A stretch of DNA of 64,000 nt from a virus: IMG/VR virus record IMGVR_UViG_3300033153_009458, positions 87,142 through 151,141 of that record, one strand, 5' to 3'. Every line of letters starts with the position of its first letter. Position 1 is the first letter of the stretch. The translations under genes and the position numbers were made by a program. Of the stretch, positions 12,722 to 54,289 are shown in pieces. The notes beneath the pieces are model-generated. The model was not told the origin of the DNA. It worked only from the letters and a program-made list of their open reading frames with translations, and did not search any database.

Positions 12722-12727
12722 GTAAAT

Positions 12728-13021: not shown

Positions 13022-13037
13022 TAATTACATTTTTTCC

Positions 13038-13100: not shown

Positions 13101-13108
13101 GAAACAAA

Positions 13109-13560: not shown

Positions 13561-13570
13561 AAGGATAAAA

Positions 13571-13846: not shown

Positions 13847-13869
13847 CCAAAAGGGGCTGGCTTTTTTTC

Positions 13870-13932
13870 TTGACAGAATGATCTTAAAGGAACATATTAA
13901 AGGTGTAGTCAATTGATAAAACCCTTCCAACT
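13870..13932 (+). promoter_or_regulatory. Early promoter repeat, copy F
   Basis: TTGACA-gaatgatcttaaaggaa-CATATT-aaaggtgta. Confidence 0.8.
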
Positions 13933-13941
13933 GGAGACAAA

Positions 13942-14762: not shown

Positions 14763-14780
14763 AATAATTTCATTTTTTTG

Positions 14781-14842
14781 TTGACATAGTTGTTTTGAAG
14801 GCGCATATTATAGGTGTATTGAGTGAGAAAACTCTTTCAAAA
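14781..14842 (+). promoter_or_regulatory. Early promoter repeat, copy G
   Basis: TTGACA-tagttgttttgaaggcg-CATATT; spacer identical to copy C. Confidence 0.8.
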
Positions 14843-14862
14843 ACCCTTGATTAGGAGACATC

Positions 14863-15390
14863 ATGGATGACATGTATAAAAGATACTACGGCGACAAATA
14901 CGACACTTCATTAGGAATCAAAGATATTGCCAAATTGGTTCGTGCTGACATCAAAACCGCTGTTAAAGAAAAGCGGATCGTCGATGGTAAATACTCTGTC
15001 AGGATTGAGCGGTATTCTGGTGGTTGCGCCTTACATGTGTATCTCAAAAATTGTAAAGTCAACATGCTGAATGTTTGGGCTGTAAAATTCAGCGAAGAAA
15101 GTCCTTATGTGAATTCAGGTCGAATGCCGAAAGAACACCCGGCTTACGGACGTTATACCCCTTTTGTTACTAAGACTTTTGAAGAACTGAAAGACATCTG
15201 TGATGCGTACAATCACGATGGTAGTAACTCCATGATTGATTATTTCGACGTTAACTTTTATGCACACATCGGTATCTGGTGGGAAGACGAATCCGCCGAA
15301 AGAGATATGCTGATAGAAAAATCCAAGACTTTAGAATGGCCGAAAGCTTGGAAAAATTACTTCGAAATTGAAGATTTCAGAAACCTGTAA
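14863..15390 (+). CDS. LPD29-like domain protein
   Basis: IAKLVRADIK..KYSVR..YSGG ... YNHDGSNSMIDYFDVNFY pattern. Confidence 0.55.
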   Translation: MDDMYKRYYGDKYDTSLGIKDIAKLVRADIKTAVKEKRIVDGKYSVRIERYSGGCALHVYLKNCKVNMLNVWAVKFSEESPYVNSGRMPKEHPAYGRYTPFVTKTFEELKDICDAYNHDGSNSMIDYFDVNFYAHIGIWWEDESAERDMLIEKSKTLEWPKAWKNYFEIEDFRNL

Positions 15391-29397: not shown

Positions 29398-29621
29398 AGA
29401 ACACTTTTTTCCTGTTTTTCACAATACGGACAAGGATGCCCACTCGGTAATTTTTTATTTAAATCAATAGTTGTTTCTTTAGTCCATTTAGAACAAATTA
29501 AACGCATTTTGTTATCGTCTAGTAATTCGAATGGATGATTACGTTTCCAATTCGGGCTGTATTTTTTATCGAACATGTCCGATACTTCTTGAATATTTAA
29601 ATATTCTCTAAATGTTTTCAT
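29394..29621 (-). CDS. Putative internal head protein
   Basis: Leader MKTFREYLNIQE. Confidence 0.5.
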   Translation of the reverse strand: MKTFREYLNIQEVSDMFDKKYSPNWKRNHPFELLDDNKMRLICSKWTKETTIDLNKKLPSGHPCPYCEKQEKSVL

Positions 29622-30622
29622 TTAAATTTTACTCTCCATTTATTTAAATCAAACCAACCTTCATAATCATAATCATCGTACATAATTCCTTTTGTTAAAA
29701 TATTACCACTTACGGCTCTTTGCATTTTTTTAACAAAACCATTACAATCTAGGACCGAAAATTTGTATTTTTTATCTAATACTTCTTCAATTATATCGTA
29801 AACTAAACCACCATCGTTTAAATGCCATTCTAAGAATTCGGTGTACTCACCTTCTGGATAACTATCTGATAAAGCCTTCATATTGCTGTGTCTAAGTTCT
29901 ACTTGTCCTAAGTTCAAATGTCGAACTCCAATTTTATCAATAATTGGCAACATTTCAAATAATTCTTTTCGATGGTTAGGCCAAGAAGGTGTTTCTATAC
30001 TCACCGTGTTGAGTATTCCAACTGCTTCTTCTATTGTACGGTATATCTTTTCTGAAAAATTTGATGCACCGATATGAATTCGAATTTCATCAAAACCTAT
30101 TTCTTTTAAAAAAAGAAGTTTTTCATTGGTTAAGCTCATTCCATTTGTGTATACATAATACCAAATTGGACTTTTCAATTCGGGTTCAATAAAATTTTTA
30201 AAATATTTTGTACCGTGTGCAATCATATCTAAATGTAAAATTGGATCACCACCACCAGAAAATGATAATGAATGAACTTTACTTTTTTCATTTATAACTC
30301 TACTTAAAGCCCACTCAACCTCTTGTTTAAAAATATCGGGGATAGTGTGAATCTTTGTTTTTTTTTCGTTATTGTGTGATTCACGATTATCAGTACAATA
30401 ATCACAATTTGCTTGGCATAAATTTGGCTGCCCAAATAAAGATGGACCAACATTCATTTTTAATTGGCCGTACGCAAAGCATCCAACACATCCCGGTGAT
30501 AATTTACCTGTGTGAGCGCAATGTCCATTAGCGTGTATTCGTAAACCTTTAAGTTTTAATTTATTTTGTCGATCAAATATTTTTTGGTATGCTTCTTGTA
30601 TTGGTAATAATTTCATATTCAT
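29618..30622 (-). CDS. Radical SAM protein
   Basis: LSPGCVGC, CQANCDYC, SGGGDP, YTNG, DEIRIH. Confidence 0.85.
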   Translation of the reverse strand: MNMKLLPIQEAYQKIFDRQNKLKLKGLRIHANGHCAHTGKLSPGCVGCFAYGQLKMNVGPSLFGQPNLCQANCDYCTDNRESHNNEKKTKIHTIPDIFKQEVEWALSRVINEKSKVHSLSFSGGGDPILHLDMIAHGTKYFKNFIEPELKSPIWYYVYTNGMSLTNEKLLFLKEIGFDEIRIHIGASNFSEKIYRTIEEAVGILNTVSIETPSWPNHRKELFEMLPIIDKIGVRHLNLGQVELRHSNMKALSDSYPEGEYTEFLEWHLNDGGLVYDIIEEVLDKKYKFSVLDCNGFVKKMQRAVSGNILTKGIMYDDYDYEGWFDLNKWRVKFK

Positions 30623-34195: not shown

Positions 34196-34774
34196 TTATA
34201 GTTTATTTTTTAGCTTCTCTATATCAAGTTTAATTTTATTATGATTTTCAGTATTTTTTTCTTTATATTGCTTCAAATCTTTTTCTGATTCGTCAATATC
34301 TTCTTTTATATCTTCAACTTGAATATTTACTGATTTTCTAAATTGTGCGCAGCCTTGAATATGTGCCTTGAAATCCCCTTGTAAATCAAAATAAGAAAAT
34401 AAACCCCCGGCTGTAAAGATAACAAACATAATAATAACAATAAGCCAAGGTGCCCATTTACGCTCTGATCGTTGGTTCATTTGATTCTCGACATCGGTGG
34501 CTGTTACGTAGTGACCTTTTTCAAAAGTTTCGAGTTGTTTTCTGAGGCTTTTAAATTCTTCACCAGCTAGTAATTTTTTAGTATCTTGAAGTTCTTGATT
34601 ATGCGAGAATTCGGTTAAAACTTCTTGTTTTAAGTGTTCGAAAGCTTGTGAGATTTGTTCAAATTTTGAATCTGTGTAATCTTTTTGATTAGATTCAACT
34701 AATTTTTGAATTTTTGTGATGGTTTCGTTAATTTGTTGTAAAGAACCATTTCCGTTATTGTCATTAGGTGGCAT
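34196..34774 (-). CDS. Membrane protein with coiled coils on both sides of one TM segment
   Basis: Central TM WLIVIIMFVIFTAGGLFSYF. Confidence 0.6.
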   Translation of the reverse strand: MPPNDNNGNGSLQQINETITKIQKLVESNQKDYTDSKFEQISQAFEHLKQEVLTEFSHNQELQDTKKLLAGEEFKSLRKQLETFEKGHYVTATDVENQMNQRSERKWAPWLIVIIMFVIFTAGGLFSYFDLQGDFKAHIQGCAQFRKSVNIQVEDIKEDIDESEKDLKQYKEKNTENHNKIKLDIEKLKNKL

Positions 34775-35222
34775 AATTTTGTATTGTTATATTCTGTAGT
34801 CGTGACTCAAAATTAATCTTACTTTCTTCAAGATCTTTATAATAAGTCAACCAGCGTTTCATAGAATCGATTAATAGTTCTTCCCACGGGTCGTTTTTAT
34901 GTATAAATGACAACGCACCTTTTTCGACAGAATTAAATGCATCTCCTATTTTATCTGTTTTCGATAATACAATGAATTGTAATTTTTCACAGTGTGTTCT
35001 GACTTCTTGAATAAAATCAAGACCGGTCATCGCATTCAAATAAAATTCAGTAATAATTAAATATGGCTTATCTTGACTATTACAATAAGTAATTGCTTTT
35101 TTGCACGTACTCGCTATTTTAACGTTCTTAAATCCGTTTTTTTCTAGTAAAGAACTAACACGTTTGAGAAAATTTATATCGTTATCAATCAATAGGATTA
35201 GAGTGTCATATAATGTAAACAT
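34764..35222 (-). CDS. Atypical response-regulator receiver-domain protein
   Basis: ILLIDND, PYLIITE(FYL), MTGLDF, IVLS, GALSFIHK. Confidence 0.8.
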   Translation of the reverse strand: MFTLYDTLILLIDNDINFLKRVSSLLEKNGFKNVKIASTCKKAITYCNSQDKPYLIITEFYLNAMTGLDFIQEVRTHCEKLQFIVLSKTDKIGDAFNSVEKGALSFIHKNDPWEELLIDSMKRWLTYYKDLEESKINFESRLQNITIQNYAT

Positions 35223-35370: not shown

Positions 35371-36138
35371 TTATCTTCGGTGGAACATTAAGCCTACACC
35401 AATTCGTTCAATGTCTTGATCCCATTGAAGTTGGTTATCTCCTTTCCCACGTTGGTAAGAATAAACTGTTTTTAAACTATTTGGAAAGATCCAATTCGGG
35501 TGTGAAAAACTTATATATCCACGATTAGAACCGCCATTCAGAGTCCACCAATTATCACCAAACTTGATAATTACAGTTCCATCGAAGTTACCCAAATCTC
35601 TAGCCATTTGTTCATGTTCATATAGAAGCACATTCCAAAACTTTCCACGCAAAACAAACGTTTCATTTTCCCATGTAGATTCAAAAAAAAATCGATCCCA
35701 CGATCTACTGAACAGCTCTGTTTGTCCGTTTGATTCGTGCCAATACCCGACATCGAACTGAAATCCGTTCCATTTGGGAGTCCGTATAAACACTTGTGGG
35801 TTGTAGTTTGTTTCCCTGAATGGTCTGGAGTTTTCTTTATTGTAAACATCCCACCAAGATTCCTGAGTAAATGCAACTACTAATTGCCAATCTTTATAAT
35901 TTAGTAATTCTGTTTTTACTGATATCTGAAATTTAGCTTCTGTGAATTCATCTATTACTTCACCTTGTTCATCGTAAATTATGTACTTACTGGCCGGTAC
36001 GAAATAATTATCGTAATGTGGAACTAACGAAATTGTAGGTTCTTCACCTTTGGCTTCATTAATCCACATAATACTTACCAAAATAGCTAATAACCCAAAA
36101 AATAGTATAATTAATCTAATTTTTATTTTTTCAGACAT
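35371..36138 (-). CDS. pldA: Outer-membrane phospholipase A (OMPLA)
   Basis: Signal peptide; EAKFQISVK, TQ.SWW..YN...SRPFRETNYNP, HESNG, SRSWDR; C-terminal IGVGLMF. Confidence 0.88.
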   Translation of the reverse strand: MSEKIKIRLIILFFGLLAILVSIMWINEAKGEEPTISLVPHYDNYFVPASKYIIYDEQGEVIDEFTEAKFQISVKTELLNYKDWQLVVAFTQESWWDVYNKENSRPFRETNYNPQVFIRTPKWNGFQFDVGYWHESNGQTELFSRSWDRFFFESTWENETFVLRGKFWNVLLYEHEQMARDLGNFDGTVIIKFGDNWWTLNGGSNRGYISFSHPNWIFPNSLKTVYSYQRGKGDNQLQWDQDIERIGVGLMFHRR

Positions 36139-37144
36139 TTATTTTCTCCCAATTAATTGACGTACTGTATAGATATTTTTCTGATCTTGAATCACTACCA
36201 ATATGATTTGTTGGTGTCTCATGTGTACAACAAAATTCTAAATTGCAATCCATAATCATTTCTATTTCACTAAAAAAAGTTAAAATCATTCTATCAAATG
36301 ATAAAAATTGTTTTATGTATTCTTTTGTTAAAGGATGCAGCAACATTTTAAAATTGATATCCTTAATTATGTCTTCTATTGTGTCAAAAGAATTATCAAA
36401 TGGTAATATTTCATGTAACAGCCCGCTTAAGCACGAAACATAATGATTATTATTTAAAACTATAGGTATACAACCACAAGCTAATCCTTCTCTTATAGTC
36501 ATGGATAAACATTCATCCAAAGAAAACAACCACAAAAATTTATGTTCATTATATACTTGCAAAAGATCTTTACGGCTTACCATTCCTTGATAGTCTATAA
36601 CATCTTTATGCTTTTCATAATACGATTCATCTACCATAGGCCCGTAAAATTTTATCTTTTTGTTTTGTTTTCTGATGAATGAAATGAAATTTGGTAAAAT
36701 TTTTCTTTCATTTAATCTTCCAATATATAAAATATCATCACTTCTATCTTCCCACGGTGTAATATTTTCCCAAATATTACTTGAAACAAATTCCATCCGT
36801 TTTCTTTTTTTTAATAATTGGGCGTGATGCGTGGTAAATGATAGATTGAAATCTAGCACCGAAGTTACACACTCAGGATCACCATGTGTAATTCCACCAG
36901 CTGCTAAATTGATCACAGGAAGATTAATACGATTTAAAGTTTCAAAATAATGACCATCATCGAAGTCGTTCAGTAATATCAAATCATACGGTGAAAAATC
37001 TACTGATTTAATTTCCATCCCGCATTGAGATGCATATATATCGATATTATCAATTCCTTTTGTTCGTTTTAATATTTCAATAAAAATTTGTCCGGTATAC
37101 TCAACACCATAACTAGTATCCCGGTTCCAAAAAAATACGTTCAT
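36131..37144 (-). CDS. Glycosyltransferase (GT-B, GT4-like)
   Basis: YIGRL..RK, YQG.VSR.DL..VY, ECLSMTIREGLACGCIP. Confidence 0.8.
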   Translation of the reverse strand: MNVFFWNRDTSYGVEYTGQIFIEILKRTKGIDNIDIYASQCGMEIKSVDFSPYDLILLNDFDDGHYFETLNRINLPVINLAAGGITHGDPECVTSVLDFNLSFTTHHAQLLKKRKRMEFVSSNIWENITPWEDRSDDILYIGRLNERKILPNFISFIRKQNKKIKFYGPMVDESYYEKHKDVIDYQGMVSRKDLLQVYNEHKFLWLFSLDECLSMTIREGLACGCIPIVLNNNHYVSCLSGLLHEILPFDNSFDTIEDIIKDINFKMLLHPLTKEYIKQFLSFDRMILTFFSEIEMIMDCNLEFCCTHETPTNHIGSDSRSEKYLYSTSINWEKINV

Positions 37145-37149
37145 TTATT

Positions 37150-38124
37150 TTAATTGTTAATTGTTTCTAGATACGCAAAAAGTTCTTTTTCTTTTTGTAT
37201 AAATTCATTGCTAATATTTGTTAATGTATTATATCTGGTTTGAGAATCAGGATCATTCATAACATCGGCTAATTTATTCTTCCTTGCCAAATTAACAGCA
37301 TCTTTTAATTCTTGATTAAAATTATTTTCATCAACCATGTCTCTTAAATGCCCATCTTCCATGATAAATGGTTCATCAGGGTATTGCTCTTTAATAAGTA
37401 AATCCGCCGTTAAATAATCACCAAATTCATTTATTTTAAACTTATAATCTTTAGAATCTATTGTGCTTAATTTAATTATAAAAGGCGTATATGTAATAAA
37501 CCCTTTCCAAATAGGCCAAACTTGATGAGTTTCAGAAATATCAATATTTTTACCGTAACGGTATATCGTCGTATCTATATTATAAGATTCTAATATTTCT
37601 TTTTTATCATAATTGCCATCCAGCATAAATTTATAAAAATCATCTGACATTTTCAAAAAATCAAGAATTTGTTCACGATTTAAATAAGACATGAATTTTT
37701 TCATTGAATTGTTAATATAATTAAAATTAAAATCAAAAAATCGTTTATTTGCTGGCTCACCTGGAATCCATGATGTAGGAATCAAACATCTTCCGATAAT
37801 AACATCAATACGTTCTATATTATCAAAATCGGTATTAGTACACATCCAAAAATTTCCCATTTTTTCTATAAATTCTTCATAAAGTTGATACATACCTGTA
37901 TCTAAAAATTTAACTTTTAGAAATCGAGTTTCTTCTTCAAAGCCCATATTTAAAAATTTTTCTTTTTCTTGAAGATATATTGAAGCAAAATTGAAATAAT
38001 ATACATCTTTAGAAGGTACTAAAGTATATATATCAATATTAATATCAAAAATATTTTTTACCTCATAAATAAAATGACTTAATTTTTGAACTTCTATTAT
38101 TTTTTCTATTTTTCCGGCCGCCAT
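37150..38124 (-). CDS. Hypothetical protein of the radical-SAM operon
   Basis: 324-aa ORF, co-oriented and tightly packed. Confidence 0.6.
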   Translation of the reverse strand: MAAGKIEKIIEVQKLSHFIYEVKNIFDINIDIYTLVPSKDVYYFNFASIYLQEKEKFLNMGFEEETRFLKVKFLDTGMYQLYEEFIEKMGNFWMCTNTDFDNIERIDVIIGRCLIPTSWIPGEPANKRFFDFNFNYINNSMKKFMSYLNREQILDFLKMSDDFYKFMLDGNYDKKEILESYNIDTTIYRYGKNIDISETHQVWPIWKGFITYTPFIIKLSTIDSKDYKFKINEFGDYLTADLLIKEQYPDEPFIMEDGHLRDMVDENNFNQELKDAVNLARKNKLADVMNDPDSQTRYNTLTNISNEFIQKEKELFAYLETINN

Positions 38125-38531
38125 CTTTGGATCTCTCTTAAATCTAATTCTTCATTTTTAAAATAAGAAATAATTCTATCAAAAATAAGTAAAAATCTAT
38201 CTGTAAAACTTCGACGCCTAGTTTTACTATCGTATCCTACATATTGTATATTCCAAATTTTTGTTTTTAAACCTTCTCCAAATATTTCATTTTCTTCAAG
38301 ATTATTAATCGCATCTTCATAAAAAGGAAAAGTAATAATATTACTGTTTGGATCACCATTAAACCAATTTAATAATGTATATGCTTGTATAACTTGTCTA
38401 GTATTATATTCGTCTTTAATTGAAGTATTTATAAAAGTTAAATCAGGTGGTATGGTAAATGACCAAGCAAATATTTCGGAGTCTAAATCAAAATTTTTAA
38501 TTTTTTGTAATATTTCATCCGCTGTTTGCAT
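38106..38531 (-). CDS. Hypothetical protein of the radical-SAM operon
   Basis: ORF track. Confidence 0.6.
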   Translation of the reverse strand: MQTADEILQKIKNFDLDSEIFAWSFTIPPDLTFINTSIKDEYNTRQVIQAYTLLNWFNGDPNSNIITFPFYEDAINNLEENEIFGEGLKTKIWNIQYVGYDSKTRRRSFTDRFLLIFDRIISYFKNEELDLREIQRWRPEK

Positions 38532-38532
38532 T

Positions 38533-39075
38533 TTATTTACCTGTTTTTATTTTTGTCAATACATGGTCTGGATTATCAACATCTTTCATAATTTCATCAT
38601 CATCTTCAAGATACTGTAGATAATGTTTTGCAATATCTATACTTGGCGGATTCCAATGTCTGAATTCTCTTAAACGTTTTGATAAATTTTTAAGAATGTC
38701 TATAGCATCTTTTGTAGCCAAATATCCTTGAAGTAATCTTGTTATTAACGCTACATTGTGTTTAATTTTAGAATCTTTAAATGTATTCAAATTCCAATTA
38801 TGCACTAAATAAATCCACGCATTTGAAAAATCACAAAATACTTGATCAATTTCTTCATACAGAATTAAATTTAATAAATTTTCTAAAGTACCTCTTACTT
38901 TATCTATATCTATTTCACTTAATTCTTCATCTTTTCCCAATAATTCAATATGGTTTCTTATAGCTTCATATGAATATATAAATCTATCAAAAGTATCGTG
39001 CCCTAATATGATTTCAGTTTCAACCCTATTGCAAAATAATCCATTAATTGTATCATAACATAATTTTTCATCCAT
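38533..39075 (-). CDS. Hypothetical helical protein of the radical-SAM operon
   Basis: ORF with SD AGGAG. Confidence 0.6.
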   Translation of the reverse strand: MDEKLCYDTINGLFCNRVETEIILGHDTFDRFIYSYEAIRNHIELLGKDEELSEIDIDKVRGTLENLLNLILYEEIDQVFCDFSNAWIYLVHNWNLNTFKDSKIKHNVALITRLLQGYLATKDAIDILKNLSKRLREFRHWNPPSIDIAKHYLQYLEDDDEIMKDVDNPDHVLTKIKTGK

Positions 39076-39081
39076 AATTCT

Positions 39082-40467
39082 TTATTCTCCTAATGTTTTT
39101 TTAATTTTTTTATATGAAACTGCTTGCTCTAAACTTAGAAAATTTACAAAAAATTCAAACAATCCGTGTTCAGATAAAAATTCTATTTGAGCTTTAACTT
39201 TTCCGAATTCAAGTAAACAGACTGAAGGATCGGGTAAAAAAGGATCACCTGTTGCTTCATATTGTGCACCCATACAACCACCTAAACATATTTCTTTAAT
39301 TCCACAACTGACACAATACGGCCAATTTGTGTGATCTGTTGTCATTGTTCCTATATAATATTCAACGTTTTTTGGTTCTATATCAATGATGTTTTCACCA
39401 TCATGTATAAATTTAAATCCATTGAAAGAATCATAAGATTGTCTATGACAAGGTGTAGCTGCTAAATCACTAAGCCGAAGTTGCATTGTTGTCTGTAAAC
39501 TACACCCAATTCCTCTACCAATTTTTCCTATGTTATTAAACATATTCATACGGCTAACATTACACGATGCTTTATCACCGTATCCACCAAATACGAAACC
39601 AAGGATAAAAGTTTCAGGATTTCTATTTAATTTATTGTACGCAAATTCTAATACTTTTTTATAAAAATCTATATATAAATTTACAGTTTTTTTTGTCCAT
39701 CCTTTATTTCTAACTTCTAATAGATATATATTATTCCAATTAATACCAAATTCTTCAAATTTTTCTTGAAACCACATAAAATTTTTGAAAGCATTTTCAA
39801 TATTATCGTAATGAATCATAGGATGAAAACCACATCCATATTGTTTTGAATATTCAAATATTTTATCGTAAAATTCATCTGTATAATAATCGTGCTGATC
39901 TAGTGTATTAATATAAGGTCGATTAACATGATCCATATATTTACCATCAAAAGATGCACTAAGTCCAAAATGTATACCAGCTTCTTTAGCTCTTTTACCA
40001 ATATTTACTACTTTTTCTGTTATAGTATTACTACGTATCCACCCAAAATTTGTTGGTACTACAATGTCTGGTTTTTTATCTGTATTTTTATAGAAATCAA
40101 ATACCATATCAAAAATTTTAAATGTTGATGGTTGTAAAAATATTTCACCCCCAAAAAGTTCAAATACAGCTGGATAATAATTATTCTTACTTAAAAAATT
40201 AAACATAATTTCTGCATTTTTTAGAAGAGTTTTGGTATCAGCCAATTCTGATGGGTGTAATTCTTTTCCATGCCCACTGCGATCATTATAATAACAGTAA
40301 GTACAATTTAGATTGCACCTAGGTTTTAATTGAAATTCTAAATTATCGTATAATTTATGACTGTGGTCTAAGTCACCTTCGAATCTAGGAGTTTTCCAAT
40401 CTTTAAAATGAGTATTCTCTAAATACGTCCACAATAATTCTTTTTGTTCATCTTGGTGTGTTTTCAT
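39082..40467 (-). CDS. Radical SAM/SPASM-domain protein (peptide-maturase-like)
   Basis: CNLNCTYC, FGGE, PTN, SFDG; GCS...TPCHR and CVSC...ICLGGCMG...VC. Confidence 0.9.
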   Translation of the reverse strand: MKTHQDEQKELLWTYLENTHFKDWKTPRFEGDLDHSHKLYDNLEFQLKPRCNLNCTYCYYNDRSGHGKELHPSELADTKTLLKNAEIMFNFLSKNNYYPAVFELFGGEIFLQPSTFKIFDMVFDFYKNTDKKPDIVVPTNFGWIRSNTITEKVVNIGKRAKEAGIHFGLSASFDGKYMDHVNRPYINTLDQHDYYTDEFYDKIFEYSKQYGCGFHPMIHYDNIENAFKNFMWFQEKFEEFGINWNNIYLLEVRNKGWTKKTVNLYIDFYKKVLEFAYNKLNRNPETFILGFVFGGYGDKASCNVSRMNMFNNIGKIGRGIGCSLQTTMQLRLSDLAATPCHRQSYDSFNGFKFIHDGENIIDIEPKNVEYYIGTMTTDHTNWPYCVSCGIKEICLGGCMGAQYEATGDPFLPDPSVCLLEFGKVKAQIEFLSEHGLFEFFVNFLSLEQAVSYKKIKKTLGE

Positions 40468-41871
40468 TTAATTTATTTTCCTTTCTGTTATATATCGTTT
40501 CAAAAATGACTCTACCATTCCATTTCCAAATAATTTGAAATACGAATTAAAATTTAATTGCATAGAACCTAAAAACATTTGTGCATCAACATTACAAGAA
40601 TGCCTAGAATTACAAAAAAAGGCCAATACTTCTGCCATTTCAGTTTCTTTATAACATTTTGAAACTTGACCAGCTTTTGCTAATAATTTTATCATTGCAA
40701 CAGAAAGTGATAAACGATTTTTTGGAAAATCATGAAAACTTCGCATAAAATAAAGATATTCTGTCAATTTTTTATCTGTCAATTCATCAAATTTAATTGT
40801 AAGATTTTTTTCTGCCATTTTACTTCTTCCACTAACAATACTATCCACATTTTTTATGCTTTGTGTTCTATTGTTTTTACCTTGTTGAAGAGTTTCTTCT
40901 TGTAATTTTTCATTGTTTAAAAAAAATGTTGCATGGCAAGGATGCAAATAATCACTAAATCCAAATTGTGAATCACCAGCCGAGCATGTAAACATAGAAG
41001 GTTTTGAAAAATATTGTGGAGAAAGTAACAACAATCCATAAAAAGCTTGATAATAATTACTACCCGGTGATATATACTTAAATCTAGTATTTTGTTGAAA
41101 TTCGAGCGTTTTTTCATATAATTCGTGAAAACAAATTCCATCTAGTTGTGTATATTCATCAGGGCAAACAATAGTTGGATCAACATTTCTTGAAAAAAAC
41201 ATTGCGTGTTTTGTATTTACAGATTCTATTCGTTCAAAAACTTCATCAAAAAATTCATAATATTTTAATATTTCACCATCTTCAAGCATTTTAGGAAATT
41301 GTGTTCTACTCATTGTAGGTTTAAAATGACAGTGTACAACTGTGAAAGGTACATTTTCTATATTGTTAACACCTTCAACAAATTTAACCATATTTTTTAT
41401 AATTGTTTCAGTAGCACCAATTTTTCTATTTTCATCTGTTACCCACTTTGGACCATCAAGAGAAAATTGTACGTGTAATTCAATTTTTCTATCGTCAATT
41501 TTTGGAAAATGTTCTACAAAATTTATTAACGCATTTGTGTGTGATAAAAAATTTGAAGAAAATCCTATTTGTTTTAACTTAGGAAATTTAGACAAAGCTT
41601 TTCTGTAAAATGGTTTAAAATATTTAATTGTTAAACTAGGTTCAGTTCCCCAATGTGTAAAATATTCTAAATCTTCACCGTATAAATCATATAATCTGTC
41701 TATGATTGGATCAACTTCTTGAATTTTTTTAATAACATCTTCATGCATTTGATCTATTGCCGGACTATTTTTTAAAATATGACAATATGTACAATCTAAA
41801 TTACATTTGGCTGAAGAAAATAGTTCAGCGGCAGCCGGTTTATAAAATTTAGAAACGCTAGATAGAAGCAT
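40468..41871 (-). CDS. Radical SAM protein with SPASM/twitch-like C-terminus
   Basis: CNLDCTYC, WGTEP, SSN, SLDG..DENR; TCSAG...PCH and further C-terminal Cys. Confidence 0.85.
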   Translation of the reverse strand: MLLSSVSKFYKPAAAELFSSAKCNLDCTYCHILKNSPAIDQMHEDVIKKIQEVDPIIDRLYDLYGEDLEYFTHWGTEPSLTIKYFKPFYRKALSKFPKLKQIGFSSNFLSHTNALINFVEHFPKIDDRKIELHVQFSLDGPKWVTDENRKIGATETIIKNMVKFVEGVNNIENVPFTVVHCHFKPTMSRTQFPKMLEDGEILKYYEFFDEVFERIESVNTKHAMFFSRNVDPTIVCPDEYTQLDGICFHELYEKTLEFQQNTRFKYISPGSNYYQAFYGLLLLSPQYFSKPSMFTCSAGDSQFGFSDYLHPCHATFFLNNEKLQEETLQQGKNNRTQSIKNVDSIVSGRSKMAEKNLTIKFDELTDKKLTEYLYFMRSFHDFPKNRLSLSVAMIKLLAKAGQVSKCYKETEMAEVLAFFCNSRHSCNVDAQMFLGSMQLNFNSYFKLFGNGMVESFLKRYITERKIN

Positions 41872-41895
41872 TTTTTAGTTCCTTTGTTAAAATTT

Positions 41896-42300
41896 TTATG
41901 TTGGTGGTATATTCCATATTGGATTTACAGTTACATATGCACCCGGTGTTTGCGGCGTATAATCAACACCTTTATGACCTGAGTAATAAGATCCTTCGTC
42001 TGAATAATCAGAACTTGGATAATTGATACTGTATTTAGTGTTATCATCTGATCCATAATGAGTACCTAATATGCCATCTTTATGACTTGGATAATAAGTG
42101 CCTTCGTGTCCATCATAATGGGTTTTATGTTCATTATCATCGTGGCCCGGATAATGTGTATCATATTGAGTTACTTGATCAGCTAAATTAGCTAAATTTT
42201 CATCTACATAACTTACATTATCTTGTATTTCGGTTATTTGTGCTGTTTTTATTGATGTACTTGTTGTGATTGTAGGATCTTCTACCCATGTAAATGACAT
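41896..42300 (-). CDS. Tetrad-repeat His/Tyr-rich protein B (putative radical-SAM substrate)
   Basis: Leader FTW..ITEIQDNV; 4-residue-phased DTHY PGHD ... repeats; SD AGGAG. Confidence 0.7.
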   Translation of the reverse strand: MSFTWVEDPTITTSTSIKTAQITEIQDNVSYVDENLANLADQVTQYDTHYPGHDDNEHKTHYDGHEGTYYPSHKDGILGTHYGSDDNTKYSINYPSSDYSDEGSYYSGHKGVDYTPQTPGAYVTVNPIWNIPPT

Positions 42301-42312
42301 TTATTTCTCCTA

Positions 42313-42837
42313 TTAGGCTTTGAGATACGGATTGTGATTGCCACCTTTAATAGTCACATCATGACCATCTAACGCACCTGGATAATTTCCCGGATAATCA
42401 CCTGGATAATGTGTACTTTTGTGTAAACTCCACTGACTACCATCATGAGTAGGACAATGAGCAGCTTTTTGAACAGATAGCACATTACTCACATAACTTC
42501 CTTTATGCGTTGTTTCTAACGCCGGATTATGGCTTCCATAATGTGTTATATAATGAAATTCATCCCATCCAGTATCAAGAGCAGCTTTATGGGTAATTTC
42601 ATTACCACTTAAATGTGCTCGGCAATAATTTTGATCATCTAAATAATCTGTAGCTAACCTAAGTTCTTCAACATCTAATTCTTCTACGTTTTCACCTTCA
42701 CCGCTAATATCCGTCCAAGACCAATCAGTAGTATCCAATTTTGCAGGATTTGTTGCAACGTCACTTATGTTGACTCGTATTTCCGCGTGTTCTTCATTTT
42801 CAATATCACCTGTTACAGGTAGCCATTCAAAACTCAT
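42313..42837 (-). CDS. Tetrad-repeat His-rich protein A (putative radical-SAM substrate)
   Basis: Duplicated leader motif; 11 of 12 core His residues in one mod-4 register; SD AAGGA. Confidence 0.7.
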   Translation of the reverse strand: MSFEWLPVTGDIENEEHAEIRVNISDVATNPAKLDTTDWSWTDISGEGENVEELDVEELRLATDYLDDQNYCRAHLSGNEITHKAALDTGWDEFHYITHYGSHNPALETTHKGSYVSNVLSVQKAAHCPTHDGSQWSLHKSTHYPGDYPGNYPGALDGHDVTIKGGNHNPYLKA

Positions 42838-42864: not shown

Positions 42865-42872
42865 TATTTATA
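42865..42872 (-). promoter_or_regulatory. Possible late promoter of the repeat-protein/radical-SAM operon
   Basis: TATAAATA about 28 bp upstream of ATG 42837; overlaps the upstream stop codon. Confidence 0.5.
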
Positions 42873-43494
42873 ATCTTAAAACATTACTAAAACACTCAAC
42901 TTTCTTAATATCCCGTTTAGAATTACTTTCTAATGCTTCACCTATGACAAGTTTTTGATCATCTGTTTTTTTAATTTTTCGTGCAAAACCTTCACCAGCC
43001 GGAACAAGTTTATCCCATTTTTTAACAGAACCTTTTACTAATACTGGTACTCGGCCAATCATCGTAATTCCTGGTCCATCGCATCCACGGTTCATTAAAT
43101 GTGCTGGTTTAGTGGTAATAATACCAAAAACATCTGGATCAAGTTCTTTATCAGAAATTTTCAATTCAGAACCTTCTTCTTTGTTTCGACTAGCTAACAT
43201 TCCGGGTTCCCATATTCCTGTTAATGTGTATCGTTCCGCTAAATCTGAATATAGAGCCGCTGTTGCTGTTCCTGTCATTTCATTACAAGCAAAATCACCA
43301 GACGCATCACGTTTAATAATTTGATCTACTGTATTGATAGATGTAGCACCGTGTACATCTTTTGTTCCCATTGTTGCATCCAAATTCTCATGATCTAATA
43401 AATTAGTTTCAATACTAGCAATATTCGGTGTTGTATTATCTGTTTTATGCTTTTTTTTACGTAAAGTAAAACCACTTCTAATTATTGTTGCCAT
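42868..43494 (-). CDS. Tail-fibre-associated protein with peptidase-G2-like intramolecular chaperone domain
   Basis: YSDLAERY, PAHLMN, GRVPVLVKG.VKK.D.LV, VIGEALE. Confidence 0.7.
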   Translation of the reverse strand: MATIIRSGFTLRKKKHKTDNTTPNIASIETNLLDHENLDATMGTKDVHGATSINTVDQIIKRDASGDFACNEMTGTATAALYSDLAERYTLTGIWEPGMLASRNKEEGSELKISDKELDPDVFGIITTKPAHLMNRGCDGPGITMIGRVPVLVKGSVKKWDKLVPAGEGFARKIKKTDDQKLVIGEALESNSKRDIKKVECFSNVLRL

Positions 43495-43501
43495 TTTTAT
43501 C

Positions 43502-46500
43502 CTATACTATTCTTATCCATCCAGTTAATGCAGCATATAAAACCGCAACATCCCACTGAGTTGTTAATGCTAATGATGAAGCCGACCCATTAATAGTTTC
43601 AGAACTATCAGGATCAAGTGTAAATGTTCCAGATGCTCCTATATTTACAAATATAAAAGTTCGTTCTACAACAGACGCCACTGGTAATAAAGTTAATGTT
43701 AATCCACTACCATTATCACCTGTAACAAAATGATCATCAATATCGAGAGTATCAGCTGATACATAATTAGTTTCTTTCGCTGTATGGTATCCAGTAACGG
43801 CTTGATGTTGTGCTAAAATAAGTTGATTATTTTCAAGTGAATTATCTACAGCACCATAATATTCTTCAAAAATTAAACTTTCACTAACACCCAAACCGTA
43901 TAACATTTTTACTGAATAGTGATCATTTTCTTCAAAATCAGTACCAATAAATAATCTTCCGTTAGTATCAGAAGTAAGTTGTAAACTAACACCGTCTTTT
44001 GTATACGATCCATTATTCGGAATAGTGATAATATCATTAGGTGATCCACCACTTCCACTGTCTGTATATATTTCGAACATTTTCTTAATGGACGCAATAA
44101 CCTTATTATCGTAACCGTACATAACACCAAAGCTGTTTATTGTACCTGTTGCACCCCACGTAAAACGAAGATGCAAATCTACAAACCCACCCGTTACAAG
44201 AACAGGTTCATCGTATTTTGGAATTTTTATCCACGTAGAAGGTGATTCATCTATTGAATATTCAACAACCATTCTTGGTTCTTCAACATATTCAGCGTGT
44301 ACTTGAAATCTATAATCGGTTGTTGGTCTTCTTGCTTCCCAAACAACACCGCCAGCATCTTCGATAACAACATCTTCTTCAAGACTATTACTGATCTCAC
44401 GATGTAGATTTCTTATTTCGTACGGTGATAATGTTACACTATAAACTCTGACTTGATCGACATGACCATTTAGAGCTGATGAAGTATTTTTATAAGATCC
44501 GATAATCATTTGATTTACAGTTGAATTACTTAAATCTAATGAGGCTGGTACTGATATTGTTTCAGACGTAACTTCTACACCATCTAAATACATTTTTGCT
44601 GTTGGTCCAGATCCATCGTACGTTGCAACTAAACTATGAAATTTATCAGATATATCTGTAAAAGCATGTACATCAGAAAAACCTGTTAAGCCAAATGTCA
44701 AGTTTCCACTTACTAAAGCTAAATAAAAATCACCGGCTGTTCCAACATAAGGACCAATATCAAATAATCCATCATCCCCTGAAGTTACATTTGCTTGAAA
44801 TGCTAAAGAAACAGAAAAATTTGTCACCGCCGCACCTAAAGCTGTTGGGAATGTAGTTCCGGTATTAATTTCACCGGTTCCCGGTAAAAACATTGATTTT
44901 CCAACATGACCTATATTTACTTGTATTAATTCTGATGATGCTGTTCCATCATAACTATTTGATGTTTCGTCTACGACCGTTGTTCCTGTTACATCATCCA
45001 TTGTATAATGAGCTTCTAAACTCGATGTTGATACTTTATCTGTCCAACTTGGTTCTGATCCTGATGAAGTACCCGCTTCTATACATTCCCAAATCCATGA
45101 ATCTGCAAGAATTTCATCTTCTAATGCCCATGCTTGTATTCCCCACGTATCATCAGTTTCAGATATAATTTGTTTTTGTATGTACTCTGTTGCGATACCG
45201 TTATAAACACTATCATTAAATGATGCATCACCAGTAACAGTTCCCGGTTGAGAAAAAGTATCATAATGCATTCTTAAAAAAGACGATGATTCTAACAAAC
45301 CACTATATTGCATATCTTCTTGCGAAGCCATAACAGGACCATCTTCACCACCTGTTGAAGCAGTAATAACCATATAATAATTTGATCCGATCAATCCAAT
45401 GTATCGACCAACTTCTACACCTGATGGTAAATTAGTTACTTTACCCGGATAAGAAGCTTCTAAAGATAAGTAAACTTTATCACCAATTGCTAACGAAGTA
45501 TTCGTAACCACGTAACCTAAAGTTCCTGTACTATCGGCACCGGTACCTGTATCAGTTCCCATATCAACATAACCTTGAGACTGTACGATACCATTATCAC
45601 CCACTGTTGGCCCTTCAGTACATACACCAATAAAATATTCTTTTGCTGTATTGTCTACAATAGCTCTATCATATTCAAGCCCAGAATTGTCGTATACATA
45701 AACGACATCATATGCATCAACATTACTGTTAAAATGAGCAAATTGATCAATGGCTGTATCGACGTATCGATCACCTAAAATATTAATTAAAATTGTTCCA
45801 CCAGCTGCAACGGTACCTATTGTGACAACTGTTGCCACTTCTATATTATTGGTGTTGCGTTTTGTAGTAGTTAATAAACCACTTGTTGTATACGATAGAT
45901 AAGCTTTGTCACCTACTACCGCTGTTGTGCCTTCTATACTCGTTGTATCGTACGCAACTAAACCGTGTGAAATCATCACACCAGCTGTTGACGTAATACC
46001 AAAAGCTATACCTACAACGGCACTAGCTGGATTATCATCAAAATCTAATTTTGCTTTTGTGTAAGTTGAGTCTGATTTTCTGTATACAAATTCATAATCG
46101 GCTACTGTTCCTTCGAATGTTGCGTTTTCATCTACTGCAAAATTTTCTAAAGAAAGATTTTGACCGATTCTTAAGAATATATAACCAGTTCCAACCGCAC
46201 CTTTAGCGATTACATAACCAACTTCGACGTTATCAGCCGTGTCTTTTGTATTAGATATTGCACCAGCTGAATCTTTTGATAGGTAAAGTTTTTCACCTAC
46301 AGTTACAGTTGAGGCAGCCGCTTGAGTTACGTCATCCCAAATTTTTGTTGCATCTTGTGTGTCGTATGTAACGAAACCACCACTTAAAACACCACCATAA
46401 TCCGTATCAGAAACGTCATACGCTATACCAACAACATCAGCTGTTAGTGGTGTACTATTTAAATTTTGTGCTTGTTTATAGTCACCATCAGATGCGTGAT

Positions 46501-48340
46501 AAACTAAATCGTAATCAGAAACACCAGAATAACTCGGATCTTCATCAAACATTTGTCCACGGTACGTGAACGTGTGATCAGTATTTCCCCTTACGTAAAT
46601 ACCAGCTTTCATCATTTCATTTTGAATGTTATCATGAGAAAAAGCACCCTCATCATGATCATCTAAAGCCGCCGCTGAACCACCAACAAAAGAAATTAAA
46701 ATAGTTCCGGTTACTGAATCACCAGTAGCAATAACCATACCAACACGAGTATTATCTGTTGTCTGTGGAACATTCGCAAATTGTCCTTCATTGTATTTTG
46801 ACAAATACAGAATATCGCCTGGATTCACTGTGGTTGGTGCTGTACCCGCACCATCTTCGATTAGAGTAGTATCATAATGAACGTATCCACTCGATAAAAC
46901 GTAACCCGTTTTTCCAGATCCATTTGTTCTGTGTGAAACACCAATAGCTCTTTCAAGTATAGTATCAACTGCTTCATTCAATGCTTTACCATAAGTACCG
47001 TCTGTCTTCATGTAGATTAACGATATTTCATTATCACTCCATGATTCAGCGGCATTAAAAACAGCATTTTCGTCAAAGTATTGCCCACGATATTCGAAAT
47101 CTGTTACACCTTGCGATTGATTATAAGTCCAAAGACCAGCTTTTTGCATTGCTGTAATTATATCAGGATGCGCTAATGCAAAATCGTTATGATCATCTAT
47201 ATTACCCGCACCTGTTGCAAGCCCTAATAAAAATTTACCACTTCCAAGTGAAATACCAATTCGAACTTTCATATCACCTTCAAACACACCTTCGTAATCA
47301 GCGTGATATCCCCAATCAATACCACTTCCACCTGAACCACCGTTATCAGCTACACCGTTTGTTCCATCAACAAAAGCATCACCTGTTTTATAATAAACTG
47401 ATGGGTTATCCCATGTTGTTGGTTTAGTCGAGCCGTGTGTATCACCACCATTAATAGCCCGCCAAATACGGTCATTAGTTACCATGTAAATATCAGCTAC
47501 ATGAGTTGTATTAGCAATCCATTTGATAAAATCTCTTTCAATTTTACCAGCTGTGGTATCTGACAAATAAAGATACGTTCCTTCAGCGTATAATTCAGCA
47601 TCAGTAGATAAATCGTTTTGCCCCCCTGATCCGGTTGTATCTACTACACCAGAAGTTATAACAATATTATTACCAAATACACCGTCCCTTGATACATCAA
47701 CAATACCGATAACTGCTTCTTGTTCTTTGTCGGCATCATCGGCTAAAGCTGGATCAAAAAATGTAGTCTTGTAATAAACAAGGTCCATATTTTGAACAGT
47801 TGTTGGATAGTCTAATGCTGCATCTTTAATAACATTTTGACCACGGTAAATAAAATCATTATCATCAAATCCTAAAACACCGTAATCTTTTAATACTTGA
47901 GTAGCGTCTAAAACGCCTTGTGAAATGACTGTTCTTACTGAAGTTGGATCGATGTGATTATAAGAATCTGTTTCATCCAGAATAACTCTGAATGTACATA
48001 TAACTCTTCTTCCAGTATCGTCACCATCCCAAATTGTATCACCAGCACCAATATATGTACCGACTGAAACAGGTTGTTGAATGATTGCTTTACCAGCTGT
48101 ATCCGATCCTGTTGGTGCTGAAGCGTATAAAACATAATTTCCGGGTGATAATGATGGTACAATAATCACTTCTTCTTCTGCTATGTAATAACCCCTTCCA
48201 TTACCGCCAATATTAACTAGTCCTTCATAAACTGTAAGTCTGTGATCAGCGGCACCCGAATAGGTAGAGGTATCCGCAATCGCCTGTTTAAATGAAATAA
48301 ACCCGGCTGATTGCGAAGCAAGATAAAATTTTTCGGCCAT
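43502..48340 (-). CDS. Large tail-fibre/adhesin-like virion protein with repeated beta-domains and a LamG-like lectin domain
   Basis: About five repeats of the form D.VY..Y..A..VG(I/V)..SG.V..GD..YLS..G; AHYTMDD..GTT..D and GHVDQVRVY...LS..EI. Confidence 0.75.
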   Translation of the reverse strand: MAEKFYLASQSAGFISFKQAIADTSTYSGAADHRLTVYEGLVNIGGNGRGYYIAEEEVIIVPSLSPGNYVLYASAPTGSDTAGKAIIQQPVSVGTYIGAGDTIWDGDDTGRRVICTFRVILDETDSYNHIDPTSVRTVISQGVLDATQVLKDYGVLGFDDNDFIYRGQNVIKDAALDYPTTVQNMDLVYYKTTFFDPALADDADKEQEAVIGIVDVSRDGVFGNNIVITSGVVDTTGSGGQNDLSTDAELYAEGTYLYLSDTTAGKIERDFIKWIANTTHVADIYMVTNDRIWRAINGGDTHGSTKPTTWDNPSVYYKTGDAFVDGTNGVADNGGSGGSGIDWGYHADYEGVFEGDMKVRIGISLGSGKFLLGLATGAGNIDDHNDFALAHPDIITAMQKAGLWTYNQSQGVTDFEYRGQYFDENAVFNAAESWSDNEISLIYMKTDGTYGKALNEAVDTILERAIGVSHRTNGSGKTGYVLSSGYVHYDTTLIEDGAGTAPTTVNPGDILYLSKYNEGQFANVPQTTDNTRVGMVIATGDSVTGTILISFVGGSAAALDDHDEGAFSHDNIQNEMMKAGIYVRGNTDHTFTYRGQMFDEDPSYSGVSDYDLVYHASDGDYKQAQNLNSTPLTADVVGIAYDVSDTDYGGVLSGGFVTYDTQDATKIWDDVTQAAASTVTVGEKLYLSKDSAGAISNTKDTADNVEVGYVIAKGAVGTGYIFLRIGQNLSLENFAVDENATFEGTVADYEFVYRKSDSTYTKAKLDFDDNPASAVVGIAFGITSTAGVMISHGLVAYDTTSIEGTTAVVGDKAYLSYTTSGLLTTTKRNTNNIEVATVVTIGTVAAGGTILINILGDRYVDTAIDQFAHFNSNVDAYDVVYVYDNSGLEYDRAIVDNTAKEYFIGVCTEGPTVGDNGIVQSQGYVDMGTDTGTGADSTGTLGYVVTNTSLAIGDKVYLSLEASYPGKVTNLPSGVEVGRYIGLIGSNYYMVITASTGGEDGPVMASQEDMQYSGLLESSSFLRMHYDTFSQPGTVTGDASFNDSVYNGIATEYIQKQIISETDDTWGIQAWALEDEILADSWIWECIEAGTSSGSEPSWTDKVSTSSLEAHYTMDDVTGTTVVDETSNSYDGTASSELIQVNIGHVGKSMFLPGTGEINTGTTFPTALGAAVTNFSVSLAFQANVTSGDDGLFDIGPYVGTAGDFYLALVSGNLTFGLTGFSDVHAFTDISDKFHSLVATYDGSGPTAKMYLDGVEVTSETISVPASLDLSNSTVNQMIIGSYKNTSSALNGHVDQVRVYSVTLSPYEIRNLHREISNSLEEDVVIEDAGGVVWEARRPTTDYRFQVHAEYVEEPRMVVEYSIDESPSTWIKIPKYDEPVLVTGGFVDLHLRFTWGATGTINSFGVMYGYDNKVIASIKKMFEIYTDSGSGGSPNDIITIPNNGSYTKDGVSLQLTSDTNGRLFIGTDFEENDHYSVKMLYGLGVSESLIFEEYYGAVDNSLENNQLILAQHQAVTGYHTAKETNYVSADTLDIDDHFVTGDNGSGLTLTLLPVASVVERTFIFVNIGASGTFTLDPDSSETINGSASSLALTTQWDVAVLYAALTGWIRIV

Positions 48341-48354: not shown

Positions 48355-48939
48355 TTATAGTGTTACACCTGTTGGAATATCTGTTCCACTAGCTACTACA
48401 CCAGCATCAGTTCCATTTGAAAAATAATCTAAGTTAAAAGTTACATCAAATTCTAAAATCGCACTGTTTGTGTCATGGTTAAGATCCATAGTTGAAACAG
48501 TTGTTGGGTAGACACCTTCACAAACATAAGAAGCTGAGACTGTATTCGCATCATCTAATTGTGAAAGAACGACACTAGTCTTATATAGTGCGGGATCACC
48601 CCTAGTATTATCTTTTGTGTGTGCTATTTTATCCATCCATTTTTCAAAAACTGATCTCAGATCGTAAGAATGATTAGCTAAAAATTTTAGTGTGATTGCT
48701 TCAAAAGTTGGATCACCACCAAATTTATAGTTCAAACCAAACCAATAAAGATTAGCAATATCTGGAATAGTTTTCGCTGGCAAACTGGCACTTCTTACAT
48801 AATATTGATAATTAGCAGGTAAAGCAGCACCGTGATTTGCTTCTGTCATATTCCCAAAAGTCACTAAAAACCTATTCGGTCTAGCTAAATTCTTGACATT
48901 AGCTGAAAAAGTTTTTAAGTCTACTGAGGCAGTAGTCAT
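48355..48939 (-). CDS. 19: Tail tube protein (gp19-like)
   Basis: LARPNRFLV, SASLP, GGDPTF, FEKW, GVYPT.V...L, EFDVTF..DY. Confidence 0.9.
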   Translation of the reverse strand: MTTASVDLKTFSANVKNLARPNRFLVTFGNMTEANHGAALPANYQYYVRSASLPAKTIPDIANLYWFGLNYKFGGDPTFEAITLKFLANHSYDLRSVFEKWMDKIAHTKDNTRGDPALYKTSVVLSQLDDANTVSASYVCEGVYPTTVSTMDLNHDTNSAILEFDVTFNLDYFSNGTDAGVVASGTDIPTGVTL

Positions 48940-53955: not shown

Positions 53956-54289
53956 AGAATTTTTTTGGCCGAATCTGTGTGCTATTAATTTTGCTAGACC
54001 CCGAAATTTTGCTATTTGGATGATATATATTTCCGTTGCAATAATTACAGAAATTACTATATTTTCATTAGGTTTTTGGACTCTAAATGCATTCATTATA
54101 TTCACATTGATTATGCTGGCATCTTTATTATATTACGTTTATTGTATAATACGATGCAATCCATTTGTAAGTTTAATGAAAGCAAGTTTAATAAAAGTAC
54201 CAGAAAACAATCCTCAAATCATAATCGGGCATTGCTGGAAATGTGGGTCCGCTATATACAAAGACAACTTAGATGAACATACAAGATAA
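53930..54289 (+). CDS. Membrane protein with C-terminal CxxC
   Basis: Two hydrophobic segments. Confidence 0.5.
   Translation: MMNTLKKIKEFFWPNLCAINFARPRNFAIWMIYISVAIITEITIFSLGFWTLNAFIIFTLIMLASLLYYVYCIIRCNPFVSLMKASLIKVPENNPQIIIGHCWKCGSAIYKDNLDEHTR

Follow-up and report, generated by a model that had tools for sequence, protein, structure and literature searches.

The eight-gene block

The 64,000 nt of DNA analysed here (the window) form the last 64 kb of a 151 kb virus record, IMG/VR IMGVR_UViG_3300033153_009458, which CheckV estimates to be 88% complete. On its minus strand lies a block of eight tightly packed open reading frames (ORFs), which includes two repetitive proteins, A and B, and two radical S-adenosylmethionine (SAM) enzymes, rSAM1 and rSAM2. 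These belong to a conserved, mobile module of five to six genes, which links the two enzymes and a helical partner to two proteins having a leader followed by a core of four-residue repeats. We think it probable, at roughly 0.6, that in this mostly phage-borne cassette the pair of radical SAM enzymes and the helper mature the tetrad-repeat cores into whole, crosslinked parts of fibres or adhesins.

All eight ORFs were found at the positions reported by an initial annotation of the window, which had been made from the nucleotide sequence alone and had described them as a packed, co-oriented group. In minus strand order, the first is repeat protein A (42313-42837, 174 aa), the putative type I precursor, in which a double leader occupying approximately residues 1-72 and ending at an invariant cysteine, Cys72, precedes a His/Tyr tetrad core; B (41896-42300, 134 aa), the putative type II precursor, has a single leader motif at around residues 1-40 and then a core of the same kind. 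There follow rSAM1 (40468-41871), with the motif CNLDCTYC, rSAM2 (39082-40467), with CNLNCTYC and a CxxCx5Cx3C motif of the SPASM type, and an all-alpha helper of 180 aa (38533-39075). The block is completed by ORFs of 141 aa (38106-38531) and 324 aa (37150-38124) and by a probable GT-B glycosyltransferase of the GT1/GT4 type (36131-37144). The 180, 141 and 324 aa proteins had all been listed as unknowns: the first turned out to be part of the conserved cassette, but the other two are not, having no homologue at any fetched locus, no match in Pfam, NCBIfam or PHROG, and no usable match in the Atlas. They are regarded as local orphans, since the loci most closely related to the window (rSAM2 identity 44-54%) have a minimal set of five genes and then endolysin genes.

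Repeat proteins with conserved leaders and variable cores

Eleven of the 13 histidines of A, and seven of the eight in B, lie in a single modulo-4 register. Shuffling the cores of A, B and two homologues from another phage reproduced such a register in none of 5000 cases, and in the same test a period of three was not significant. The initial description of a His or Tyr at every fourth residue consequently holds for A and B, but this is the window phage's version of a broader tetrad, x-[D/N/H/Y]-x-[S/T/G/A], found family-wide. The second position is Asp in 30% of units, Tyr in 23%, Asn in 21% and His in 12%, and the fourth is Ser in 31%, Thr in 27%, Gly in 22% and Ala in 10%; these shares, counted inside runs chosen for the pattern, are somewhat inflated. 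That bias does not extend to the contrast with the remaining ORFs: tetrad runs cover 32 aa or more in 67 of the 79 repeat proteins, but in 8 of the 2930 ORFs of other kinds. Chance periodicity or miscalled ORFs were rejected on the strength of this contrast, the shuffles and the co-occurrence of repeat proteins with rSAM2 at 47 of 55 loci (see below).

The four residues favoured at the second position are those whose C-beta is bonded to an sp2 carbon. They also constitute exactly the NAY codon box, such that first-base changes suffice for variation at this position. A diversity-generating retroelement was rejected as the source of core variability, both because the D/N/H/Y variation affects only the first base of NAY codons and because no reverse transcriptase was seen in the ORF lists of the loci inspected.

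Family alignments bear out the leader-plus-core layout that had been ascribed to A and B: leaders are conserved, and cores, which range from around 40 to more than 400 residues in proteins of 75-500 aa, are hypervariable, diverging much faster than either leaders or enzymes. The N-terminal domain of the type I proteins, about 72 aa long, contains two copies of a Trp...Ile/Val....Glu-Leu/Ile-Arg..Asn..Asp motif, with W5 and the junction Cys72 invariant in 74 homologues; this cysteine is three residues ahead of the first H/D/Y/N residue of the register. The type II leader, of around 40 aa, has one copy. In an AlphaFold2 (AF2) model of A each leader motif is helical, with block-mean values of the predicted local distance difference test (pLDDT) of 67-83 across the leader, whilst core residues 103-174 are below 50 and have no confident monomer fold. 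Between two of the loci (L038 and L047), the type I leaders are 92% identical, the cores 30% and the enzymes 36-42%, a disparity between leaders and enzymes that suggests either that cassettes have recombined or that the leader is very strongly constrained.

As the cores are too variable, leader profiles are needed for searching: a peptide-pattern search of viral contigs with B gave no match, and neither A nor B matches any PHROG. From 1.84 billion representatives, the type I leader profile retrieved 1756 representative clusters at 50% identity, 261 of which had an E value of 1e-10 or lower, and nearly all of the 150 best clusters are proteins of 100-250 aa whose leader starts at residue 1. 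In the genome to which the window belongs, A and B are the only proteins with this leader. Weaker matches included high-GC bacterial proteins (P0223 and P0264) having tandem copies of a leader-like motif (I.A.H..ELR...), in one case with an RHS-like YLPFGEE segment; judging from these sequences, the leader motif may be a more general small module.

A conserved cassette

A profile search brought in 45 IMG/VR loci and a few from genomes. ORFs were called in every locus and classified with jackhmmer and phmmer; all counts given here are over the 55 loci with an rSAM2 homologue. The carriers are about 50 phage contigs besides that of the window, along with a few bacterial contigs, and the rSAM2 homologues form at least 144 clusters at 90% identity, almost all of them unnamed metagenomic proteins.

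Such a search of phage and metagenome contigs for the same neighbourhood had been proposed in the initial annotation, which named radical SAM enzymes mostly lacking repeat proteins as the outcome that would tell against it. Instead, repeat proteins are present at 47 of the 55 loci and rSAM1 at 49. The repeat proteins mostly number exactly two, usually one with a long leader and one with a short leader, and a helper homologue of 150-200 aa is found at 41 loci, in some of which a copy follows each radical SAM gene. The core set is therefore five genes: two paralogous precursors, two very divergent radical SAM enzymes and the all-helical partner. A glycosyltransferase, present at 13 loci, is an optional member belonging to an extended version of the cassette. 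Its earlier identification agrees with the family as a whole, 11 of 12 members of which match PF00534 (Glycos_transf_1; best E 7.7e-14), the window protein alone remaining below the cut-off (24 bits against 26.4), and at one locus (L006, 6488-8980) rSAM1 and the glycosyltransferase are naturally fused into a single protein of 830 aa.

The association persists although gene order varies. Writing REP for a repeat protein and GT for the glycosyltransferase, the arrangement is rSAM1-rSAM2-helper-REP-REP-GT at locus L002, and rSAM1-helper-REP-REP-rSAM2-helper at five loci. Most of the loci without some part of the cassette can be explained, and some of the contigs are truncated. At L008 and L010 the missing part is accounted for by phages in which TGA is read as tryptophan: the rSAM2 gene of L008 (9001-10341; similarly in L010 and perhaps L007) has six in-frame TGA codons, at least five of them opposite a Trp of the window protein or of the family consensus, and is read through using translation table 4, which implies that TGA encodes Trp in these phages. 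In a Colwellbacteria genome, the repeat protein is placed at the end of another contig, and L053 has a divergent, Asn/Tyr-rich repeat protein that the hidden Markov model (HMM) missed.

Cassettes in phages and Patescibacteria

The phages carrying the cassette are unrelated to one another. They include T4-like contigs (of which L099 has gp2 and portal genes), one with a GpJ-type, lambda-J-like fibre (L004) and one with an SU10-adaptor match; L053 is a prophage-like locus of the Clostridia (Firmicutes), in which the cassette is found between fibres and holin/endolysin genes. Phage cassettes are situated at the end of the tail fibre module. Upstream neighbours matching named PHROGs are mostly tail fibre proteins; a protein with a domain homologous to that of a 208 aa fibre-domain protein in the window is encoded at 17 of the 55 loci, in most cases immediately before the repeat proteins; and the cassette is often followed by lysis genes. 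At L104 (1130-4012; P0235), a 960 aa protein is composed of four F5/8-type-C-like repeats with a type I leader and a short core at the C terminus, and is succeeded by a 78 aa ORF, ORFs of 431 and 435 aa (the sizes of rSAM1 and rSAM2) and one of 166 aa (the size of the helper). This could represent a true fusion or the loss of a stop codon.

Three contigs from Patescibacteria (candidate phyla radiation) hold the cassette among cellular genes. In two of them (L005, 4051-5505; L006, 3614-5306), the repeat proteins are immediately preceded by genes for TatC, TatA, a small protein whose twin-arginine signal is RRKFLK (RRxFLK) and a zinc-ribbon protein. The arrangement is a hint of export by the twin-arginine translocation (Tat) system, perhaps by hitch-hiking, given that the repeat proteins themselves lack a signal. 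Cellular copies are sporadic, since a survey of 401 Patescibacteria genomes found rSAM2 in the seed genome only.

These locations bear on the main functional rival to a role in fibres, in which the cassette and the relation of enzymes to substrates are the same but the end product would be released as an effector, either a peptide or a protein with a bacteriocin-like or signalling function; lysis would free it, or, in the Patescibacteria, Tat would export it. The region between tail fibre and lysis genes often holds phage cargo, the patescibacterial TatC, TatA and signal-bearing proteins adjoin the repeat proteins, and a conserved leader with a hypervariable core is the classic layout of a ribosomally synthesised and post-translationally modified peptide (RiPP). 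However, the phage cassettes have no leader peptidase or dedicated transporter, the products are long, at 75-500 aa, the adjacency to tail fibres recurs across unrelated phage types, and the L104 protein fuses leader and core to lectin-like repeats. A released effector is hence judged unlikely; it is the lack of a peptidase or exporter, the length of the products and the position beside fibre genes that lead us to think that the products remain whole, as fibre or adhesin parts.

The radical SAM enzymes and the helper

Both enzymes qualify as members of the radical SAM superfamily through their CxxxCxxC motif, which is invariant in 38 homologues of rSAM1 (C23, C27 and C30) and 42 of rSAM2 (C51, C55 and C58), whilst their scores against PF04055 (17.9 and 22.8 bits, respectively) are below the cut-off of 29.5. 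They can barely be aligned with each other. Three further cysteines are invariant in rSAM1 (C296, C312 and C426), enough for one auxiliary cluster of a twitch-like kind; rSAM2 has seven (C322, C340, C385, C388, C394, C398 and C417), including the CxxCx5Cx3C motif, which is the full SPASM complement and fits two auxiliary 4Fe-4S clusters, with a TIGR04085 (SPASM) score of 22.5 bits against a cut-off of 27.

The comparison with radical SAM maturase HMMs suggested in the initial annotation produced matches that are all far below the cut-offs of the NCBIfam models, which range from 170 to 650. For rSAM2 the highest were PapB (50.9 bits, a full-length match over residues 43-409), QhpD (36.6) and the nif11 maturase (31.3); for rSAM1 they were the anaerobic sulfatase maturase (34), twitch (33), PapB (30), YhhB (29) and HxsB (27.5). 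The best solved relative of rSAM2 is PDB chain 5wgg_A (E 9e-11), which we take to be CteB; neither rSAM1 nor the glycosyltransferase has a sequence relative in the PDB. In both HMM and PDB comparisons, then, rSAM2 is nearest to maturases of peptides or proteins, and most of the weak NCBIfam matches of rSAM1 are of this kind too (PapB, QhpD, YhhB, DynA and 5wgg_A).

The AF2 model of the helper is an eight-helix bundle (pLDDT 91.8). It belongs to no Pfam family and has no Foldseek match in the PDB at E <=0.001, and VIA-align returned only generic helical-repeat matches, with Z of 8.8 or less. A search of the block for a RiPP recognition element (RRE) or PqqD-like domain had been suggested in the initial annotation; the helper does not resemble one, being modelled as all-helical and matching no PqqD-like chain. 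There is also no room for an N-terminal RRE in either enzyme, as the cluster motif begins as early as residue 23 of rSAM1 and residue 51 of rSAM2. Co-folding rSAM2 with the helper and the type I leader gave a score of 0.01 (mark 0.32), which counts neither for nor against binding.

The identity of the enzymes, and the way in which they accompany the repeat proteins, also weigh on the proposal that the latter are ordinary, unmodified fibres or adhesins, for instance beta-structures with a metal ladder of His, Asp, Tyr and Asn, with the enzymes, helper and glycosyltransferase acting on a glycan or cofactor for fibre assembly. An alternation of large polar and small residues would suit the face of a beta-sheet, D, N, H and Y bind metals well, the genes adjoin tail fibres, and the fusion of rSAM1 to the glycosyltransferase would fit sugar chemistry too. 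However, leaders more conserved than the enzymes, hypervariable cores and an invariant junction cysteine count against this proposal; the repeat proteins can lie between two enzyme-helper pairs, the nearest relatives of rSAM2 mature peptides or proteins, and AF2 finds no fold for the core. Furthermore, a sugar pathway cannot be the core function, because the glycosyltransferase is absent from 42 of the 55 loci. We consider it very improbable that the repeat proteins are left unmodified, and prefer to regard them as substrates of the enzymes.

Relationship to known systems

In Pfam and NCBIfam, the repeat proteins, the helper and the two enzymes have no match above a model's cut-off. Neither the 6.7 kb block (by megablast) nor rSAM2 (by tblastn) has a match among 50,697 records of isolate phages, a set from which the record of the window itself may have been excluded, and full-text literature searches found no description of the cassette. 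The impression that no described system has the same substrate pattern was therefore upheld by Pfam, NCBIfam and the literature. The cassette would function, by analogy, like radical SAM RiPP systems with repeat precursors, yet it falls outside the triceptides, the ranthipeptides and the His-Xaa-Ser systems. The label 'RiPP-like' is similarly apt in part: conserved leaders and variable cores are found beside modifying enzymes, but the products are of 75-500 aa rather than small mature peptides and no peptidase or exporter is found among the eight ORFs, homologous cassettes running into lysis or tail genes, so the resemblance is one of analogy rather than class.

Radical SAM enzymes form cyclophanes between His C2 and C-beta on HAA, HTK and HNR motifs in the triceptide systems of HaaB, HtkB and YhhB, respectively (PMC11499958; NCBIfam NF041707), and there, as here, the enzyme adjoins precursors in which aromatic motifs recur. 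Both His and Tyr are known to act as donors in crosslinks, and A and B are rich in H-x-x and Y-x-x units (HKA, HKG, HKT, HYG and YYP). However, the YhhB, XyeB, GrrM, FxsB and AmcB models give only 13-29 bits against cut-offs of 310-450 (YhhB 29.1 against 445, GrrM 27 against 310), the matches covering the N-terminal radical SAM core only. The period is four rather than three, D or N rather than an aromatic residue occupies 51% of register positions family-wide, and the cassette has two enzymes, a helical partner and precursors of 75-500 aa and is mainly phage-borne. Closer to the triceptides in this respect is a distant relative, L003, with period-3 FGN/FGD units. Its rSAM2 relative (30% identity) is split into three ORFs and possibly recoded, two large paralogous genes beside it (7905-14905) look YcaO-like by eye, and a 114 aa protein (6107-6451) has a similar leader motif followed by a period-3 NFGNFGDFGNFGD core of triceptide-like F-G-N/D units.

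The ranthipeptide/SCIFF maturases PapB and CteB (NF047865; PDB 5WGG) are alike in their seven-cysteine SPASM domain, in PapB being the best profile match of rSAM2, and in the best solved relative being, we presume, CteB. Their targets are C-beta or C-gamma of Asp/Glu at a fixed spacing from Cys, and the type I proteins have an invariant Cys near the register. The rSAM2 score is nevertheless 50.9 bits against a PapB cut-off of 340, and the cores are not Cys-rich in the manner of SCIFF precursors; with only one conserved Cys, repeated thioethers are impossible. The His-Xaa-Ser system HxsA-D (HxsB, HxsC; TIGR03978) also has two radical SAM enzymes and a His-rich repeat protein, and many units here are H-x-S or H-x-A, but it differs in its period of three, its leader and its partner, and the HxsB model, whose cut-off is 370, gives scores of 27.5 and 17.9 bits. 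QhpD and QhpC (TIGR03906) provide a precedent for a radical SAM enzyme maturing a protein that stays whole, and QhpD is the second-best match of rSAM2 (36.6 bits, in the SPASM region); this is below the cut-off of 453, though, QhpC is Cys-rich without a tetrad repeat, and QhpD is not a phage enzyme.

Proteusins, such as polytheonamide with its epimerase PoyD, are comparable in their long precursors, periodic core modification and fibre- or helix-like modified product; they differ in that no NHLP or Nif11 leader is found here and in that the enzymes are not detectably related beyond the radical SAM core. They are the model for an account in which rSAM1 and rSAM2 are epimerases, with D residues at alternate positions, Gly taking the place of a D residue at position 4, and an alternating D/L, beta-helix-like fibre as the product. 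This would suit the constraint on every second residue and the 22% of Gly at position 4; Ser, Thr, Ala and Asn are known targets of radical SAM epimerases (PoyD, OspD and YydG), and two enzymes could serve two classes of residue. Yet the relatives that rank highest by profile and by structure are SPASM crosslinkers (PapB, QhpD, 5wgg_A and cyclophane synthases), a full seven-cysteine SPASM domain is typical of crosslinkers, and there is no leader of the NHLP or Nif11 type. On balance, epimerisation as the main activity appears distinctly unlikely.

Proposed maturation of the repeat proteins

Crosslinking is favoured because the nearest relatives of the enzymes are themselves crosslinkers (PapB, QhpD, the cyclophane synthases and the presumed CteB) and because the invariant cysteine sits three residues before the first register residue. 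A further reason is that cyclophanes from His to C-beta are established on H-x-x motifs (PMC11499958). We infer that the repeat proteins are the substrates, that their leaders recruit the enzymes and that radical chemistry takes place repeatedly at the periodic D/N/H/Y and S/T/G/A positions. In the proposed mechanism, the conserved leaders would dock the precursors to a complex of enzymes and helper, and the enzymes would then work along the core, abstracting hydrogen at the periodically placed residues and installing repeated side-chain crosslinks. Such crosslinks could be cyclophanes joining an aromatic ring to C-beta on the His/Tyr units, or else thioether or ether bonds that begin at the junction Cys and involve the C-beta of D/N/H/Y; epimerisation is the alternative. 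Where present, the glycosyltransferase may add sugar to the Ser/Thr-rich core. The products would stay whole proteins, in phages made late together with the tail fibres, and would most likely act as stiff, protease-resistant, variable parts of fibres or adhesins.

Several points weigh against this reading. The mechanism is built throughout on gene neighbourhood and distant homology, and all matches to models of characterised maturases are 7- to 40-fold below the cut-offs, for which reason the chemistry of the known enzymes is not transferable. No single known type of crosslink fits every unit, as position 4 is Gly in 22% and Ala in 10% of cases and position 2 is D or N in 51%. The constraint on every second residue could also be that of a beta-fibre repeat with a structural role only. 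The window's cassette yielded no RRE/PqqD-like domain, no leader peptidase and no transporter, and one distant locus (L082, 30% identity) shows no repeat protein in a seemingly intact context.

A more specific scenario would have unrelated phage lineages using the radical SAM pair to crosslink, and sometimes glycosylate, hypervariable tetrad-repeat proteins of the tail fibre apparatus, the module being shared with a few Patescibacteria that export the products by Tat; this is put forward tentatively, as less likely than not. The maturation of repeat peptides by radical SAM enzymes is already known, whilst the precursor, leader, partner and enzyme families described here are new to Pfam and NCBIfam. 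The system is large, given its 1756 leader clusters and at least 144 enzyme clusters, and is carried mainly by uncultivated phages, beside host-recognition genes. Asp, Asn, His and Tyr probably undergo post-translational chemistry of a new kind in it. Under the more specific scenario above, this would be periodic C-beta or aryl crosslinks on D/N/H/Y units, and the products the first radical SAM-matured structural or receptor-binding proteins of a virus. Should they be virion parts, dedicated enzymes would be chemically crosslinking phage fibres, with a bearing on host range, particle stability and the design of protein materials.

Surroundings of the block in the window

The window comes from a distant T4-like myovirus. 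Its major head protein, portal, sheath, tube and large terminase all match their respective PHROGs, the head protein having only about 30% identity to that of any isolate phage, and the G+C content of the window is 27-38%. The placement of the block behind tail fibre genes was confirmed: the sheath gene and the tail tube gene (48355-48939, PHROG match) lie upstream, followed on the minus strand by a putative structural ORF of 1612 aa that is fibre-like (43502-48340) and, directly upstream of A, by the 208 aa protein with a tail fibre C-terminal domain (42868-43494; phrog_22593, 3e-14; phrog_19602, 'tail fiber protein', 2e-5). A word resembling the T4 late promoter, TATAAATA, is found on the minus strand at 42865-42872, 27 nt before the ATG of A, and was called intergenic. 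Six of the seven minus strand copies of this word in the window are just upstream of gene starts; it is not enriched in this AT-rich sequence (11 found, 11.9 expected), and hence is weak evidence on its own.

Downstream of the block are a phospholipase and an M15-type endolysin. The former, an outer membrane phospholipase A (Pfam PLA1, E 1.8e-38; 35371-36138, minus strand), directly follows the glycosyltransferase and is around 1.2 kb from the endolysin; its presence in a phage implies a diderm host. It lies outside the conserved cassette, being absent at all other loci. Beside the lysis genes, a stand-alone receiver-domain protein is encoded at 34764-35222 (minus strand), and in the T4-like relative L099 (5857-7656) a PAS protein and a Response_reg protein come directly after the endolysin, a pairing that recurs. 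Two more ORFs of the window phage, unrelated to the cassette, weakly match radical SAM PHROGs: 29618-30622 on the minus strand (2.4e-5) and 54273-55397 on the plus strand (5.8e-10).

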